Part shown: positions 7,877-21,333 of the stretch, in pieces
Numbering within the stretch: the stretch's first letter is position 1
Layout: every line of letters starts with the position of its first letter
Assembly (NCBI RefSeq): GCF_001421665.1
Contig: NZ_LMKV01000001.1
Location: forward strand, 671,415 to 703,414
Source of the DNA: Sphingobium sp. Leaf26
GTDB lineage: Bacteria; Pseudomonadota; Alphaproteobacteria; Sphingomonadales; Sphingomonadaceae
Direction of reading: 5' to 3'
Length of the DNA: 32,000 nt
Notes under the pieces: generated by a model
What the model saw: only the letters and a program-made list of their open reading frames with translations
The model's database searches: none
Told to the model about the DNA's origin: nothing
Translations under genes and position numbers: made by a program

Positions 7877-8913
7877 GACTGGCCCTCCAGCGCGATGCGC
7901 CCCTTATACCAGAGTGCCGCATTGGCAGAGATACCGCCCACGACGTCGTTCCAGTCGATGTTGCTTTCCTCGCGTTCGGCCACGCTTTCCTTCAGGATAT
8001 CGGCTTTGACCCATTCGATGAAGTCACGGGTCCGACACGGATCAAGCTGACCATCAACCGCTTCGGCAAGCGCCTGCTCCATCCGCTGTTCAGTGCAGAA
8101 CGCTTCGGCGAAAAGGTTCTTCGTCGGGAACCACTGGGCTTTCAGGTGGACCGCGTCACGGCTGCGGTTGACCCGTAGGTTTTCCGCTTTGGCCTTGAAA
8201 TTGAGGACCGACCACATTGGGATTTCATCCGGGGCGTAGGACAGGCCGTTGCCGACCATGGGGTAGCCGACCAGACCTTCGCCCTTCCCTTCGATGCCGA
8301 ACATCGACGCCATCAGGGGATCACGTTCGCCGATCTGTTCCACTTCATCGTTCAGCGCCATGACGGTCGCGACGGTGGCATCCTTGTCCCCAAAGTCGAT
8401 GGTGACCTTGGAATGGTAGGGCAGCGTCTTCACCGATGACGGCGCGGGCATCGTGCCCGACATGCGGAAACTGATTTCCTGCGGGTCATACAGGCGCTGC
8501 TGAAGCTGGCCAGCCACGTCATAGGTGTCGATGGCGAAGGGGTAGAACACCGGTTCCGGCGTAGCCGAACAAGCAACATCCTGCTGGATGCCCGGCCCGG
8601 CCCACTCACCCCACACATAGGTAGCAAGATCGGGATTGTGGAAGGTCGCCCAATAGCTGGGGTTGGCTTCCACCCATGCGCGAAAGCCGCCGTTGTCGGT
8701 GTCGCCGGGAATGTCGCTGCTACGGCGCTGGGCCGCAACCTGCCCATTGGGCTGGACACGCACACCGGCATTGGTGCCATGGATTTTGATCTTGAAACCG
8801 TAGGTGACCTTGTAGTCCTGATCGCGCAGGGTGCGATGGACCGCGACCTTGTTCACGCCACGGATGACATCATGGAAGCTGTTGAGGGAATCCCATTTGC
8901 GGAAGCCGTTCAT
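7873..8913 (-). CDS. ATP-dependent RNA ligase, T4 Rnl2-like
   Basis: Motif I is KIKIHGTN (T4 Rnl2 has EKIHGTN). VWGEWAGPGIQQDV compares with VFGEFAGPGIQKNV, FYPFAI with FYVFDI, and the N-terminal KWDSLNS with KYSSLEN. T4 Rnl2 sequence recalled from memory. Confidence 0.8.
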   Translation of the reverse strand: MNGFRKWDSLNSFHDVIRGVNKVAVHRTLRDQDYKVTYGFKIKIHGTNAGVRVQPNGQVAAQRRSSDIPGDTDNGGFRAWVEANPSYWATFHNPDLATYVWGEWAGPGIQQDVACSATPEPVFYPFAIDTYDVAGQLQQRLYDPQEISFRMSGTMPAPSSVKTLPYHSKVTIDFGDKDATVATVMALNDEVEQIGERDPLMASMFGIEGKGEGLVGYPMVGNGLSYAPDEIPMWSVLNFKAKAENLRVNRSRDAVHLKAQWFPTKNLFAEAFCTEQRMEQALAEAVDGQLDPCRTRDFIEWVKADILKESVAEREESNIDWNDVVGGISANAALWYKGRIALEGQS

Positions 8914-12372: not shown

Positions 12373-12879
12373 ATGACGAACGAAATCATCTGGGTCGACG
12401 TGGCCCGCAAACTTATCGGCACCCGCGAAATCAAGGGTCCGAAGCACAATCAGACAATCATGGGCTGGATCAAACGCCTTGGCAGCAAGGTGCTGGGGAT
12501 CGCGGTCACCGATGATGAAACGCCATGGTGTGGCACCTTCATGGCCGCAGTGATGACAGAATGCGGTTTTGCCCCTCCCAAGGTCGCGGTGCGGGCATCA
12601 TCGTGGGACGCCTTTGGGGTAGCGGTATCGAAGCCCTACTTGGGTGCCGTGGTGCGGTTCCAGCGTCCGGGTGGCGGGCATGTCGGGATCATCATCGGCC
12701 AGTCCAAGGATGGCAAATTGCTTCGCGTATTGGGCGGCAACCAGTCCGATAGCGTTAATGAAACTTGGATCGAGCGCAGTCGCGCCGTTGCGTATCGTTG
12801 GCCTTCCGGAGTGGGCAAGCCGGAACTACTTGCACCAATACTTACCCACTCAGGTTTAATTTCTAAGGACGAAGCCTAA
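12373..12879 (+). CDS. CHAP / NlpC-P60-type peptidoglycan hydrolase (TIGR02594-like), probable endolysin
   Basis: 168 aa. A catalytic-type Cys is in ETPWCGTFM and a His in GGGHVGIIIG, followed by LGGNQSD, matching my memory of the TIGR02594 family. Confidence 0.75.
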   Translation: MTNEIIWVDVARKLIGTREIKGPKHNQTIMGWIKRLGSKVLGIAVTDDETPWCGTFMAAVMTECGFAPPKVAVRASSWDAFGVAVSKPYLGAVVRFQRPGGGHVGIIIGQSKDGKLLRVLGGNQSDSVNETWIERSRAVAYRWPSGVGKPELLAPILTHSGLISKDEA

Positions 12880-12908
12880 TTGACGTATCGTCACGCCAAT
12901 AGTAATAT
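12880..12908 (+). promoter_or_regulatory. Sigma70-like promoter of structured RNA copy A
   Basis: TTGACG (12880-85), a 17-nt spacer, then TAATAT (12903-08). Hairpin H1 begins 2 nt later. Confidence 0.5.
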
Positions 12909-12910
12909 GT

Positions 12911-13100
12911 GGCCCTGACGTGCTGCGAAGCAGGTCAGGGCCTGCCGGTCTTACCGGCTCAGGCTACGGAGGAGGCACTACCATTTCCAATCGTCTCAGT
13001 GGCGAGGTTTTGAGTTCCTCTATTTGGATCAGATTGGCGTCTGATCCGGCGAACGGGCCATCTGGGGTGTCGACTACCTTGGATGGCCCAGCGCCCTTTT
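12911..13100 (+). ncRNA. Candidate structured RNA, copy A (unassigned family)
   Basis: Elements in order: H1 12911-12942; H2 12944-12958; GGCTACGGAGG 12962-72; GAGGA:TCCTC 12969-73/13016-20; H3 13026-47 with loop ttggcg; H4 13055-89; tail cccTTTTac. It is collinear with copy B, with compensatory stem changes, and has no RBS-led ORF. Confidence 0.5.
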
Positions 13101-13369
13101 ACTCCCAGCACAAGCGTCGGATCAAGGGGCTGCCGCAAAAAAATCAAGTATCCGGCTAGACCGGACAACGCGATCCGAAAATTCGGAAATATTCGGGGCG
13201 CTAGACCCGCTCCCAATCTCATTGACGACACCGTCAACGACAATAACCGTTGACATAAAGCTGCACTTTGATCGCTATATTTCGTGGATTAACTCGTGGA
13301 ATATCTCGCAACCAATATCCAACTTAACCATCAGGCAAAAGACTGTTCAAAGAATCTTCGAAGAGTCTT

Positions 13370-13957: not shown

Positions 13958-14722
13958 TTACTGGTTATGGGCTTCGTTCGGATGCGAAGCCTGTTGCCTT
14001 ACTACCCTTTTCACCGCTGTCGGTGACCATTGCCCGCCACGGGGTGCCCGGATCGACCGTTCATTCAGGTATGCAGCGATCTTGGCTAAGGATACCGCCC
14101 CGTGCGCCTGAGCCTCAACAATCACCCTATTGACGCTGGCCGCCCTCTGTCGGGCCGCCGTCTGACGGACATGTAGCGAACGCTGGAGGCCAACAGTCTG
14201 GTTTCGGAGGTTGGTGCCATCGTTGCCTAGCTTACGCCCACGGGCCTTAGAAGCTGCCAGAGCGGCCTTCGTTCGCTCGCTGATCATATGGGCCTCTGCT
14301 TGCGCCACAGCAGACAAGATATGAACGGTCAAATGGTTCGCGTCAGGAAGATCAGCCGCCACGAATGGCACCTTCGTTTCCATCAGCGTCGTGATGAAGT
14401 GTAGATTTCTCGCAAGCCTGTCTAATTTCGCCACGATCAACCGCGCGCCGGTAAGCCGGGCACGTTCTATGGCTTCGGTGAGGGCTGGCCTATCCCTTCT
14501 GCGGCCGGATTCGACTTCCGTGAATTCCGCAATCACCTGATCCCGGCTGCGCAGGTGATCTGTGACGGCTTTACGCTGAGCTTCTAGCCCCAGACCAGAT
14601 GCCCCCTGCCTGCGGGTCGATACCCGATAATAAGCCACATAGTCAGTCACTTCATTGATCCCTGAAAAGCGTGCCAAAGGATAAGGAAGCTTTATCGTTA
14701 GGTCAAACGTTCGTCTGACCAA
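13958..14722 (-). CDS. Small serine recombinase (resolvase/invertase family)
   Basis: The catalytic-Ser motif is YYRVSTRRQ, followed by GLGLEAQR, VESGRRRDRP and LIVAKLDRLARN. The C-terminal HTH is SLAKIAAYLNERSIRAPRGGQWSPTAVKRV. The start may be TTG 14722, 4 nt after the terS-like stop, or GTG 14650. Confidence 0.9.
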   Translation of the reverse strand: MVRRTFDLTIKLPYPLARFSGINEVTDYVAYYRVSTRRQGASGLGLEAQRKAVTDHLRSRDQVIAEFTEVESGRRRDRPALTEAIERARLTGARLIVAKLDRLARNLHFITTLMETKVPFVAADLPDANHLTVHILSAVAQAEAHMISERTKAALAASKARGRKLGNDGTNLRNQTVGLQRSLHVRQTAARQRAASVNRVIVEAQAHGAVSLAKIAAYLNERSIRAPRGGQWSPTAVKRVVRQQASHPNEAHNQ

Positions 14723-14725
14723 ATG

Positions 14726-15271
14726 TCATTCCTGCGAATTGTCCTCAATCGCCGCCACTTCAACGAAATCAGCGTCAAGAATATCGTCGTCGGGAAGATG
14801 CACGATCTGGAATGGCTTGCCGCCGCTGGTGATGTCGAGACGATCGGCATAGCGATTGTTCCGCTTGCTCATGATCCATATCAGCAGCTTCACAAGGTCA
14901 CGATCACGCGCACGATCGCCGGTGGACAATGACCCGCCAGACTGAATGTTGATCATCCGGGATTCCAGACTTTCCATGCCCAGTTCGCGCGCAGCTTCAA
15001 ATTCAACGGCAAATTCCTCCCGAACCTTGCACCAATCGCGCACCGTTTGGTCACTCACACCGATTTCACGACAGGCATCCTCAAAAGCCAGCCCGGATCG
15101 AAGGTAAAGCAACAGGTCTTCCGCAATTTCCGGGGTGAATTTGGTCGGTCGACCCATCTTGCGCATCGTCCGGACCTCCTCCGCGATCTTCGCCATCAGG
15201 TCGCGACCGTTAGCAGCCAACACTTTCTGGGCCTTTCCGCGCCCATCCTTCTTCTGATCATTATCGTCCAT
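14726..15271 (-). CDS. Terminase small subunit-like HTH protein
   Basis: GRPTKFTPEIAEDLLLYLRSGLAFEDACREIGVSDQTVRDWCKVREEFAVEFEAARE plus the C-terminal RDRDLVKLLIWIMSKRNNRYADR fit the GRPTKYTPE-type TerS family as I remember it. Start context is TAAGTA-GGTG-ATG. Confidence 0.6.
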   Translation of the reverse strand: MDDNDQKKDGRGKAQKVLAANGRDLMAKIAEEVRTMRKMGRPTKFTPEIAEDLLLYLRSGLAFEDACREIGVSDQTVRDWCKVREEFAVEFEAARELGMESLESRMINIQSGGSLSTGDRARDRDLVKLLIWIMSKRNNRYADRLDITSGGKPFQIVHLPDDDILDADFVEVAAIEDNSQE

Positions 15272-15436
15272 CACCTACTTATAGTGATGTCAATAATCTG
15301 GGGCACAACATATGGTATTCCCGTGAGTTTACCATACCACAGGTTGGATTAAAGGTGGAACATCGTGGCAACATCGGCTATGAGAATCATGCACGGGCCA
15401 GAATGTCGATCAACCTTTTAAAAAAGGAATGAAGCC

Positions 15437-15691
15437 ATGATTGAAGTGCGAACCAAAATCCTCAACATCTTGCGAAAAGGTCCAGTGCTTGCGGTCAATC
15501 ACAGGTTCCATATCGAAGGTGAAGACGCGGCAGTCGTGCATGAGACAGCAGCGGAGATGCACAACCGAGGTGAGTTTAGAGTAATCGGGGCACCGAATAT
15601 GAACTCAGACTATGCCGGTGCCGATCCTGAAGTATTTTATCTATCACCGCACCGTGCAGAAGCAGAACGCATGTGGAATTTGTTGACCTGA
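15437..15691 (+). CDS. Hypothetical protein
   Basis: 84 aa with an SD (AAGGAAtgaagccATG). No recognisable motif. Confidence 0.55.
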   Translation: MIEVRTKILNILRKGPVLAVNHRFHIEGEDAAVVHETAAEMHNRGEFRVIGAPNMNSDYAGADPEVFYLSPHRAEAERMWNLLT

Positions 15692-15711
15692 CCGTCAATA
15701 CCCCGTAATGA
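15683..15711 (+). promoter_or_regulatory. Sigma70-like promoter of structured RNA copy B
   Basis: TTGACC (15683-88), a 17-nt spacer, then TAATGA (15706-11). Hairpin H1 begins 4 nt later. The geometry matches the copy A promoter. Confidence 0.45.
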
Positions 15712-15715
15712 GGAA

Positions 15716-15883
15716 GCCCCAGCAGTCGCTGACTGCTGGGGCTGCCCCTTGGGGCTACGGAGGTTCCACGTTCTGATCCTTTCTTACCAAGGCTAGGCCG
15801 AACGACCTCAATTTGAACTGGATGGCCGTCCAGTTCGGCGAAATGGACCGCTAAGGGTAACCTTGGCGGTCCTTTTGCTTTCT
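15716..15883 (+). ncRNA. Candidate structured RNA, copy B (unassigned family)
   Basis: Elements in order: H1 15716-42 (12-bp perfect stem); GGCTACGGAGG 15753-63; GAGGT:ACCTC 15760-64/15805-09; H3 15815-36 with loop tggccg; GGCGAA linker; H4 15845-72; then TTTTGCTTTCT, an intrinsic-terminator shape. Confidence 0.5.
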
Positions 15884-16359
15884 GGCTTGTTAGCCAGACA
15901 CCCCCTATCGTTGATTTCTAGGGCGGACGCAAGCCATTTTGAAGTCAACAGTTAAAATTGTTCTTGGCCACCAAGTTGACAGAGCGGTCAATAGGGTTTG
16001 AAACAGGTCTGAAACGCATATGAAACGCGATTAGCGTGAATTAGCGTTATCTAGAATGAACTAGAGATATGCGGGAAGTCTATCGCGTTTAAACGCGGTG
16101 TTACCGAAACCGAACACAACTCTAATCGGATTGATAATGTTATCACTGCAACTGGGTGCAAACTATCATCAAGTTTAGCGACGTAGAAGCGGATTAAACG
16201 CACATTCACCGAAGACAGACATAGCGTTCCGTCGAAGCTAACATGAAGACAGCGCCGACACAGCGACGGTGCAACGGGTTGCAACCGGCATTGGAAATGA
16301 TTTCCCGGTCACAGAGTTTGCTAAAGCACATACTCACCAATCACCGCGATCGGTTGGTA

Positions 16360-16611
16360 TCACTCTTTCACCCTGACGATCACATTGGCTTTCCAGTCAT
16401 AAGCGCGGATCGCGCCGCCGCAGTAAACATGATGGCGGATTGCATAGCGGACGGCTTCGATCGCGTCGGCACCGTCACGCAGGGCAGCCGTCGCCTCAAC
16501 CCGTCGCGCGCCGTCCCGCCCCGCAACCACTTTCCGCGCCACATAATCGTTTCTATTTCTGGGGGGCGCAGAGCGCTTCTCTCTATTAATAGAGGGCTTG
16601 CGCCACCACAT
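16360..16611 (-). CDS. Possible small protein (weak call)
   Basis: The C-terminal 60 aa of this 83-aa ORF look protein-like (DYVARKVVAGRDGARRVEATAALRDGADAIEAVRYAIRHHVY...). It has no SD, and its 5' end overlaps an operator-like palindrome. Confidence 0.3.
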   Translation of the reverse strand: MWWRKPSINREKRSAPPRNRNDYVARKVVAGRDGARRVEATAALRDGADAIEAVRYAIRHHVYCGGAIRAYDWKANVIVRVKE

Positions 16612-16820
16612 TATGTGTTCATCTGGCAGAGGCGCAGAGCGCCTTAGAAAACCAGCGTAAGCTGCATATTGCGGATACGATCGCTGGGGCGAACGGATCT
16701 CTATTAATAGAGAATCGACCCCGAAGGGGTTGCACGTAAGTGCATGTATTTGAATGGAAATCTCTGATTTCTCTATTAATATTAATTACTACGTAATCCT
16801 TCCTTATATTAATAGAGATT
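16565..16820. promoter_or_regulatory. Operator/iteron-like cluster built on the 16-bp palindrome TCTCTATTAATAGAGA
   Basis: A perfect copy lies at 16698-16713 and a 15/16 copy at 16579-16594. Half-sites ctctattaat (16771-80) and attaatagag (16809-18) form a wider inverted repeat. The direct repeat ggcgcagagcgc occurs at 16565-76 and 16631-42. Confidence 0.6.
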
Positions 16821-18038: not shown

Positions 18039-18197
18039 GTGCAACTTACGCGAAGCCAAGTAGCCGAACGTCTGGGGATTAGTGTGCGGACGTTTGACCG
18101 GCTTCGGCAGGAGGGATCAATTCCCGAACCGATCAAGACTATTCGGAAACGCCCCATTGTTTGGGACGCTTCAACGATCGAGACACTTCGAACCTAA
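18039..18197 (+). CDS. Excisionase/MerR-type HTH DNA-binding protein (52 aa, absent from the ORF track)
   Basis: Starts at a GTG with AAGGAG 6 nt upstream. The product is VQLTRSQVAERLGISVRTFDRLRQEGSIPEPIKTIRKRPIVWDASTIETLRT, a typical HTH_17 pattern. Confidence 0.6.
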   Translation: MQLTRSQVAERLGISVRTFDRLRQEGSIPEPIKTIRKRPIVWDASTIETLRT

Positions 18198-19767: not shown

Positions 19768-21165
19768 TCAAACGTGGCTGACCGAAATTTTAGCCGCCTT
19801 CCGCACCTTGGACGTGCGCTTGATAGGGTCAAGCTGCCCACGTTTTGCGGCGCGGACATCTTCATCCGCCTTGGCTTTATCCAGCACCTCTTGCCACACG
19901 CGCAGCGCGTAGGCCTTTTCGTGCATATAGTTGTGCTTGTTGTAATTTTTCCTGCTGCCGACCGTGGTGGTTCGTTCGACATGGTTCAGAAGGGCTTCGG
20001 TCACTTCATCGGTGACGACCCGATTGATCGTGCCGGGGTGATGCAGCCGCTGGAACGTCGTCGTGATTGTGCGCCGAAAATCGTGCGCTGACCAACCTTC
20101 CATGGCGAAGCCGTCCGCCTTGGCCAGATGTTCGGTTTCACGAAACAGCAGATGCGTCGATTTGGAAAAGGCGTTCAACGCCTTATCTGCCTTCGCTTGC
20201 TGAAACACGAAGGTCGCCTTTGGATTCGCCTCCCTCAACGCCCGCAGCCAGTCCACGATAGGCTGCTGAAGCAGCAGATAGTTCGGCCGCCCATTCTTGG
20301 TGGATGGCCCCGGTTGCGTCCAACTCCCTTCGTCAAGATCGAACTGATCCCACGTCGCTGTCATCGCTTCTTCAAGCCGACAGCCTGTCGCTAGGATGAG
20401 ACGCAAGCCCAGTGCGAAGGACCGATGGTTGCTTGGCTTTTCGGCCGTCGCATAACGGTCGATGACCGCGATGACATAGCCCAGTTCGCGTTCGTCAAGG
20501 TAGCGTTCGACCGTGCCGATCGTGTTCTTGGCCCCAAGGTATCGTGCGGCATCCTCCTGATTGACGACCTTATAGCGATATTCGCTGACCATCCGCTTCC
20601 ACAGCGTTTTCAGGAATCCGGCAAATTTGTAACCCTGATGCGGTGACCGAGCCTTTGCCTTATCCAACAGCCGATCCAGCACCCTGTGGTCGATCTGGGT
20701 CAATGGAAGGTCGGCGATTTCGGACAGGTATCGCGACCAATACAGCTTTTCAGCGTGGGGCTGTTTCAACGTCTCCACATGGTCGGGCAGGTAATAGGTG
20801 TCCCAGAACCATTGAAGGGTCTGTGTGTCATTCGCTGCCTTGGCGTCCTCGACGGCCTTCGCCTCTTCCTTCAGACGGACCTTTTCCAATTTCGGGTCGA
20901 TCCCGCGTGCCCGCAGCGCCTCCTGTTCGCCCGCCCACGACCGGGCCATGGTCAAGGAAAATGCCGGGTATGACCCCAGCGACATTTTCGCCTGCTTCTG
21001 ATCGCTGGGGCGGCGATACTGATACACCCACGATTTCGAACCCGTTGGCTGCACCATCAGATACAGGCCGGGAGTCATCCCATCCTTGATCGCATCCGCC
21101 GACTTCGCACCGGGCGTGGGCTTGGCGGCCTTCACAGCCGTGTCCGTCAAATTCTTCGCAGCCAT
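19768..21165 (-). CDS. int: Tyrosine integrase, P4-like (DUF4102 arm-binding N-terminus)
   Basis: The N-terminus is LTDTAVKAAKP...GLYLMVQPTGSKSWVYQYR. The C-terminal catalytic region has GCRLEE, HDFRRT and LLNHV...NY. I take the start at ATG 21165, with AAGGGA 7 nt upstream. Confidence 0.9.
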   Translation of the reverse strand: MAAKNLTDTAVKAAKPTPGAKSADAIKDGMTPGLYLMVQPTGSKSWVYQYRRPSDQKQAKMSLGSYPAFSLTMARSWAGEQEALRARGIDPKLEKVRLKEEAKAVEDAKAANDTQTLQWFWDTYYLPDHVETLKQPHAEKLYWSRYLSEIADLPLTQIDHRVLDRLLDKAKARSPHQGYKFAGFLKTLWKRMVSEYRYKVVNQEDAARYLGAKNTIGTVERYLDERELGYVIAVIDRYATAEKPSNHRSFALGLRLILATGCRLEEAMTATWDQFDLDEGSWTQPGPSTKNGRPNYLLLQQPIVDWLRALREANPKATFVFQQAKADKALNAFSKSTHLLFRETEHLAKADGFAMEGWSAHDFRRTITTTFQRLHHPGTINRVVTDEVTEALLNHVERTTTVGSRKNYNKHNYMHEKAYALRVWQEVLDKAKADEDVRAAKRGQLDPIKRTSKVRKAAKISVSHV

Positions 21166-21333
21166 AGCTGTGTCCCTTCGCAGGCCAAGTAGTCTACAAG
21201 TAGTCACAGGTCCATACTGCGGGGGTGCCGGGGAGACTCGCTGATACCATTGCCAGACCGGACAACCTCTATAGAATGACGGAAATCAGCCATTTTATTG
21301 GTCACATTCGGTATCGGATGGTATCAGCGAATT

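Follow-up and report, generated by a model that had tools for sequence, protein, structure and literature searches.

The window, by which we mean the whole 32,000-nucleotide stretch that was analysed, is a prophage of Sphingobium sp. Leaf26, a cultured strain isolated from an Arabidopsis leaf. Capsid, Mu-F-like, portal and TerL genes run leftward from ~7.5 kb. Next after this block come an RNA-ligase-domain ORF, a T7-type endonuclease I gene and a CHAP lysin gene. Past ~21.3 kb of the window the GC content rises sharply to host levels. The genes around the two RNA copies described below are as follows.

12373-12879, + strand: CHAP lysin gene, with its stop codon directly before the TTGACG -35 of RNA copy A
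Between copies A and B, + strand: small ORFs, one of them ea8.5-like
13958-15274, - strand: 254-aa serine recombinase (Resolvase and partial Recombinase domain), preceded by a TerS-like/HTH_Tnp_1 protein
15437-15691, + strand: 84-aa gene (P0001, identical to a hypothetical protein of Sphingobium sp. Leaf26), directly preceding copy B, with its stop codon within palindrome O1-B
18039-18197, + strand: HTH_17/MerR-like (excisionase-type) small ORF, kept in the window, in the Hainich groundwater phage (L001) and in Sphingobium sp. WW5 (L262)
19768-21207, - strand: integrase

The serine recombinase and its TerS-like partner sit between both RNA copies and are absent from the other phages that carry the RNA; the pair may be an inserted module. 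The RNA-ligase-domain ORF (7873-8913, - strand; PF09414, E = 7.5e-8) adjoins the large terminase gene, and a family search with the two ORFs beside it (131 and 351 aa) gave no match. This ORF and its neighbours may have a role in RNA repair or anti-defence.

Architecture and folding of the two RNA copies

Two segments of the + strand are diverged paralogues of one small-RNA gene cassette, which is new and carried by the prophage. A preliminary description of the same DNA had proposed that they share one collinear architecture, and the two were found to adopt the same folds. In both copies the order is H1, H2, GGCUACGGAGG with a GAGG:CCUC pairing, a variable domain of 40-45 nt, H3, H4 and a U-rich tail. 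Over the known versions, the length of the RNA is ~165-190 nt.

12909-13100, + strand: RNA copy A, ~190 nt
12911-12942, + strand: H1 of copy A, with the GNRA loop GCGA
12944-12958, + strand: H2 of copy A
12962-12972, + strand: conserved GGCUACGGAGG of copy A
12968-12974 / 13015-13021, + strand: closing helix of the variable central domain of copy A
13026-13047, + strand: H3 of copy A
13055-13089, + strand: H4 of copy A, extended by GGCG/CGCC, with the tail CUUUU
13149-13167, - strand: terminator-like hairpin with a T-run, just right of copy A, found by terminator scan
15712-15881, + strand: RNA copy B, ~170 nt
15716-15742, + strand: H1 of copy B
15744-15755, + strand: H2 of copy B
15753-15763, + strand: GGCUACGGAGG of copy B
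15760-15764 / 15805-15809, + strand: closing helix of copy B, enclosing a CU-rich variable domain
15815-15836, + strand: H3 of copy B
15845-15872, + strand: H4 terminator hairpin of copy B, with the tail UUUUGCUUU

The minimum-free-energy folds of copy A (-100.5 kcal/mol) and copy B (-93.5 kcal/mol; folded as 15712-15885) displayed the same hairpin series. The z-scores of the folds were -6.6 and -7.0, respectively, and none of 200 shuffles was equally stable. The - strand folded 12-16 kcal/mol less stably than the + strand, and several of the stem pairs are G-U. These two results point to a structure formed by an RNA of the + strand rather than by double-stranded DNA.

Most of the individual elements named in the preliminary description were recovered. 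The H1 motifs are present at 12911-42 and 15716-42, and the pairing of GAGGA with TCCTC in copy A and of GAGGT with ACCTC in copy B was confirmed, the closing helix being nearly invariant. In H3 (13026-47/15815-36), four pairs are altered on both sides, each with compensation. Some points had to be revised. GGCTACGGAGG, at 12962-72/15753-63, is identical in copies A and B, but it is not invariant as had been claimed, as two homologues have GGCTATGGAGG. The WATTT and GGCGAA linkers are present, but RNAalifold carries H3 and H4 into these stretches (AUUUG and CGRCGAA), so that they are largely helix extensions and the RNA is almost wholly helical. H4 is located at 13055-89/15845-72, but 'GGGT..ACCTTG' is not the loop motif that it was taken for, CCTTGG being the 3' arm of the H4 stem. 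Between the two copies, the clean intrinsic-terminator shape is, as had been noted, found in copy B only; in copy A a longer stem (GGCG...CGCC around H4) is followed by CUUUU.

Few conserved nucleotides are left exposed, namely CUAYG ahead of the closing helix and a CAC internal loop after GGAGG. A further exposed stretch, the CU-rich part of the central hairpin, is variable in sequence. Near-complete base-pairing with very short conserved single-stranded stretches is atypical of a small RNA that acts by seed pairing. As for the minus-strand hairpin at 13149-13167, judging from its sequence it would shield copy A from leftward transcription.

Covariation, homologues and distribution

A covariance model (R1) was built from copy B and one homologue from outside the window, with copy A left out. 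This model matched copy A at 49.2 bits (E = 4e-13), and no real match was obtained when it was run against ~1 Mb of decoy loci. A second model, R2, scored copy A at 121 bits. We then examined the 47 pairs of a model-based alignment of five good sequences. Standard pairing was observed in 88.5% of the cells. Double changes were found in 18 of the 47 pairs, compared with 8.3 ± 1.9 in column shuffles (0/500 shuffles reached 18) and just 1-3 in slid controls. The compensated pairs were distributed over H1 (5), H3 (5) and H4 (6), and the 5-bp closing helix (GAGG/CCUC) was nearly invariant. RNAalifold, run independently, returned the same helices and also 18 compensated pairs. Within the central domain, an inner helix (CGUUC/GAACG) was only 60% paired and was taken out of the model. 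Compensatory changes thus preserve H1, H3 and H4 in five distinct sequences, a covariation that is unusually clean given so few of them. Covariation is strong in both the model-based alignment and the independent RNAalifold run. We consider it probable that the segments encode a functional structured RNA, as the preliminary description had argued.

The non-coding nature of the RNA was also borne out. No ORF is conserved through the helices; two ORFs overlapping copy A (12920-13159 and 13083-13253) have no counterpart in copy B, and a start codon at a usable distance after GGAGG is not present in all copies. In a scan of the whole window with the 4227 covariance models of Rfam 15, no match reached the gathering threshold. 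At E <= 10 there were sub-threshold snoRNA, miRNA and other weak matches (e.g. aceE-II), none of which lay over either copy, and no weak match recurred between the copies. A hit to sX6 (18.8 bits; gathering threshold 40) was on the wrong strand of the WW5 locus and was not reproduced in the window. The RNA is thus, as the preliminary description had supposed, outside known families: a new, previously uncatalogued family of narrow distribution, whose general kind, the prophage-encoded small RNA gene, is known. New bacterial non-coding RNA motifs turn up routinely.

Beyond copies A and B, four further distinct versions were identified in four other prophage sequences or contigs.

L001 (= L114 = L111): Hainich groundwater phage; three identical metagenome or IMG/VR contigs, found by exact-motif DNA scans
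L262: Sphingobium sp. WW5, found via a search with the 84-aa protein
L263-267: set of Logan contigs, found via the 84-aa protein search
L275, 4580-4775: degenerate version on a GenBank metagenome-type contig, found via the 84-aa protein search

The known set thus comprises six sequence variants in five Sphingobium-type prophage contexts, from closely related hosts, and only the window has two RNA copies in one phage. The version in L275 (25.7 bits, z = -3.5) retains H1 and the terminator, has lost GGAGG/CCUC and lies between decayed forms of the two palindromes described below; it is a diverged and possibly decaying version of the RNA. Its downstream sequence is homologous to window 15900-16300, which indicates that mosaic joints between the phages fall at the cassette. 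The genes flanking the RNA vary by locus (HNH or terminase; Abi_alpha, DUF6232 and lysozyme; AbiTii), and a comparison across the phages revealed no partner gene in common downstream of the RNA. The setting of the cassette is an accessory region beside lysis and Abi genes.

Seven motif scans of viral contigs (five with the RNA's own motifs, one with the relaxed GGCTAYGGAGG and one with the H1 hairpin) gave nothing beyond L001. A pattern scan with GGCTACGGAGG..CCTCNATTTG produced 20 matches in genome contigs, all due to chance, and 27 in metagenome contigs, of which only L111 and L114 were real; the remaining pattern matches failed either against the covariance models or on inspection of their motifs. 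L262 and L263 carry the motif variants GGCUAUGGAGG and CCUCUGAUUUG and were therefore overlooked by the exact-motif patterns. As these patterns overlooked the GGCTATGGAGG variants, the distribution of the RNA is probably underestimated. With copies A and B as blastn queries, the INPHARED phages and the PLSDB plasmids yielded the lysin gene only. H1-like hairpins in L283 and L284 turned out to be ordinary terminators and not homologues.

Promoter-like sites, palindromes and the upstream gene

Both promoter-like sites reported in the preliminary description were confirmed. They are listed here together with the bracketing palindromes, which, like the linked 81-84-aa gene, were missed in the preliminary description.

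12880-12893: palindrome O1-A, TTGACgtatcGTCA, over the -35 of copy A
12880-12908, + strand: promoter-like site of copy A, TTGACG-17-TAATAT, with its -35 inside O1-A
13222-13237: palindrome O2-A, TTGACgacaccGTCAA, 342 bp past O1-A
13251-13282, + strand: promoter-like site TTGACA-N18-GCTATATT, after O2-A, serving small + strand ORFs from 13296
15683-15698: palindrome O1-B, TTGACctgaccGTCAA, over the -35 of copy B
15683-15711, + strand: promoter-like site of copy B, TTGACC-17-TAATGA, overlapping O1-B
15976-15991: palindrome O2-B, TTGACagagcgGTCAA, 293 bp past O1-B

A TTGAC -35, a 17-nt spacer and a TAnnnA/T -10, all sequence matches only, precede the RNA in 6/6 versions. The -10 is weak in the homologues (TAACGA, TACATA). 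At the other end, the H4 hairpin is followed by a U-tract in copy B, where the terminator scan flagged it, and in L001, L262 and L263. The terminator is clean in copy B, L001 and L262, and weak in copy A, which does not have a good U-tract.

At none of the loci does a terminator separate the RNA from the gene before it, and the RNA must therefore also be co-transcribed as a 3' UTR. This raises the possibility that the RNA is not a gene of its own but a structured module, 3' UTR and terminator in one, that belongs to the preceding genes (the lysin gene for copy A and the 84-aa gene for copy B) and would stabilise or terminate their mRNAs in cis or yield a small RNA by processing. The weak -10 hexamers in 4/6 versions would be consistent with such a module, as would the upstream stop codon that abuts or overlaps the -35 at all loci and the fact that H4 is the first terminator past the upstream genes. 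Nevertheless, the -35 and the 17-nt spacing are kept even in L275, despite its decayed palindrome, the same RNA is found behind two unrelated genes, and termination does not need the covarying H1-H3. We regard a 3' UTR module as unlikely.

The five well-conserved copies have exactly two TTGAC-N5/6-GTCA palindromes each, one on either side, the first over the -35 and the second 293-376 bp downstream. The same two-palindrome layout was observed in L001, L262, L263, L264 and L265, and no such palindromes were found at the loci of protein homologues that have no RNA. With the spacer relaxed (TTGAC-N4-9-GTCA), nine occurrences were counted in the window against 1.2 expected, four of which belong to the cassettes. 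The location of O1, across the -35 and spacer of the predicted RNA promoter, is that of a repressor site. From sequence, the palindromes might be bound by the 84-aa winged-helix-like protein or by the HTH_17 protein at 18039-18197, but naming these candidates is guesswork.

Short, phased repeats follow O2. In the window (15995-16215) and in L275 they are TGAAAC (x3), ATTAGCGT (x2) and TTAAACGC..ACCGAA (x2), and in L001 and L262 (L262 10630-10790) they are ACGAAC (x5-7). These repeats look like iterons and, judging by their sequence, may mark a replication origin. An ORF called at L001 1134-1439 is probably spurious.

The 81-84-aa gene lies immediately 5' of the RNA in five independent prophage contexts. 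Copy A is the sole exception, and no paralogue of the gene was detected upstream of it. At all the other loci the stop codon of the gene overlaps the TTGAC -35 of the RNA, and copy B begins in the final codons of the 84-aa ORF (15437-15691). The corresponding ORF in the Hainich phage encodes 84 residues from a GTG start codon and 81 from ATG. The AlphaFold model of the 84-aa protein had a pLDDT of 83, and the best PDB matches in Foldseek were PadR/HxlR winged helices with weak E values of 0.06-0.2; the predicted fold is thus weakly winged-helix-like. Pfam gave no match to the 81-84-aa protein, and the PADLOC defence models gave none to the 84-aa protein or its neighbours. Distant homologues of the protein (P0004-P0006 and P0014; 70-71 aa and 79-80 aa) occur in ICE-like or other contexts, and are not followed by the RNA.

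We considered whether the 81-84-aa protein, the RNA and the two palindromes together make up a single mobile cassette of RNA and protein that is self-contained and has its own function, which we regard as rather doubtful. Such a cassette, which adjoins Abi_alpha and AbiTii genes in prophage accessory islands, could use its RNA for superinfection immunity or abortive infection, or could be a switch of RNA and protein between lysis and lysogeny. The RNA would then be an effector or a sensor and not an ordinary base-pairing small RNA.

Possible roles and comparison with known phage RNAs

The reading that we favour, with modest confidence, is that of a small RNA gene of the prophage moron type, gated by an operator and bounded by a terminator, whose product works as a free RNA. 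The RNA would be transcribed from its own sigma-70-type promoter, in addition to read-through from the upstream gene, and transcription would stop at the H4 intrinsic terminator, releasing the RNA in stable, free form. Its synthesis would be gated by a DNA-binding dimer of the phage that sits on the palindromes. The RNA would act in trans, either as a regulator or by binding protein, much like a prophage moron. Its contact surface would likely consist of CUAYG and the CAC internal loop, together with the CU-rich part (arm and loop) of the hairpin in the central domain.

We also weighed a cis-acting function, in which the nascent RNA would be a leader that governs read-through of its own terminator (an attenuator or a put-like antiterminator), or in which its transcription would activate or prime a possible replication origin in the repeats past O2. 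The putL/putR RNAs of phage HK022, each with two hairpins in ~70 nt, affect in cis the operons that follow them. They resemble the Sphingobium RNA in having two diverged copies per phage, placed before two gene blocks, in starting at a promoter, which for the Sphingobium RNA is a predicted one, and in having compensatory stems. O2 lies within ~100-175 nt after each copy, iteron-like repeats come next for copy B and the outside homologues, and + strand genes come next in the window and in L001. However, the 170-190 nt Sphingobium RNA, with its five helices and a predicted terminator at its end, differs from put in size and architecture, and copy B in particular ends in a strong predicted terminator. 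Moreover, the gene downstream of the RNA is convergent in L262 and L263, with the next + strand gene ~1.5 kb away, which speaks against a leader. After O2, copy A has a promoter-like site and small ORFs instead of iteron-like repeats, and this good promoter-like site belongs to the ORFs themselves. The repeats also vary between the phages, whereas the RNA is conserved. We therefore rejected a put-type antiterminator, there being no co-oriented gene directly downstream in L262 and L263, and consider a leader or origin function in general to be quite improbable.

A site acting at the DNA level, in recombination, packaging or as a single-strand origin, for instance for the serine recombinase, is very improbable: two direct copies do flank the serine-recombinase/HTH gene pair, palindromes lie on either side of each copy and the phages have mosaic joints close to the cassette, but the other RNA-bearing phages do not have such a recombinase, the fold is strand-asymmetric with G-U intermediates preserving the stems, and stem sequences that drift while pairing is kept are the opposite of a DNA site recognised by a protein.

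A moron-type small RNA gene finds its closest counterparts in those of other prophages (e.g. DicF, IpeX, and the anti-sRNAs AgvB and AsxR of EHEC prophages). These are likewise short, non-coding, structured and, as presumed for the RNA here, stable, and have a promoter and an intrinsic terminator, which in the present case are predicted from sequence, between genes of the accessory region of a temperate phage. The Sphingobium RNA, on the other hand, is larger and far more base-paired, has no long single-stranded seed, comes with a small gene upstream and with palindromes on both sides, and no relationship in sequence or in Rfam was found. In the arbitrium system of SPbeta-like phages (aimR-aimP-aimX), a small gene is followed by a palindromic operator that controls the promoter of a non-coding RNA. 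The likeness to the Sphingobium cassette lies in the gene layout only; the hosts here are alphaproteobacteria, there is no AimR-like TPR receptor, and the 84-aa protein has neither of the features tested, a signal peptide or a propeptide. The C4 RNA of P1/P7 and the CI RNA of P4, both of which function in immunity, are also phage-encoded and structured, but at 70-80 nt they are processed from longer transcripts and have complementary targets nearby. No such sites were found here, and the Rfam set scanned, which presumably includes a C4 model, gave no match to it.

In searches for base-pairing targets, antisense or target sites for the conserved motif were no commoner in the window than by chance (12 against 9 expected), no long inverted repeats were present between the RNA and other genes of the window, and RNAduplex against the translation-initiation regions of the phage ORFs yielded non-specific output. 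Mimicry of the 16S rRNA 3' end (h45 and anti-Shine-Dalgarno) by the CU-rich domain was rejected, as local alignments were equal to those of shuffles (p = 0.1-0.9).

Further RNA classes were also rejected. For a type III toxin-antitoxin system (ToxIN-like), neither copy overlaps a tandem repeat array, and the protein gene, of 81-84 aa, lies upstream. For a retron msr-msd, no reverse transcriptase domain was found in the neighbouring ORFs scanned. For an IS110 bridge RNA or a TnpB/IscB omega RNA, no such gene is adjacent, the sole recombinase nearby is the 254-aa serine recombinase, and Rfam gave no match.

Few non-coding RNAs are known from temperate phages of alphaproteobacteria, and the RNA adds a well-supported structured family to them. 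Its layout is testable: a small gene for a DNA-binding-like protein comes first, then a promoter-like site overlapped by an operator-like palindrome, then the RNA and last the second palindrome. Its present value is mainly that of a candidate for experiment. If the RNA governs immunity, lysis timing or host physiology, it would provide, in Sphingobium lysogens, an experimentally tractable case of RNA-based prophage control outside the enterobacteria.

Two other features of the prophage were noted. A 16-bp palindrome, TCTCTATTAATAGAGA, occurs in four copies at 16580-16818 with 0-3 mismatches (chance expectation, 0.03), in a mostly non-coding stretch ahead of a 244-aa minus-strand ORF, and probably represents an operator array or an origin element. 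Window 21200-22090 matches L001 11365-11527 in short stretches of 78-100% identity, a homologue of the same host gene abutting the Hainich phage. The integrases of the two phages are only 25% identical. The Hainich phage and the Leaf26 prophage probably share an attachment locus.
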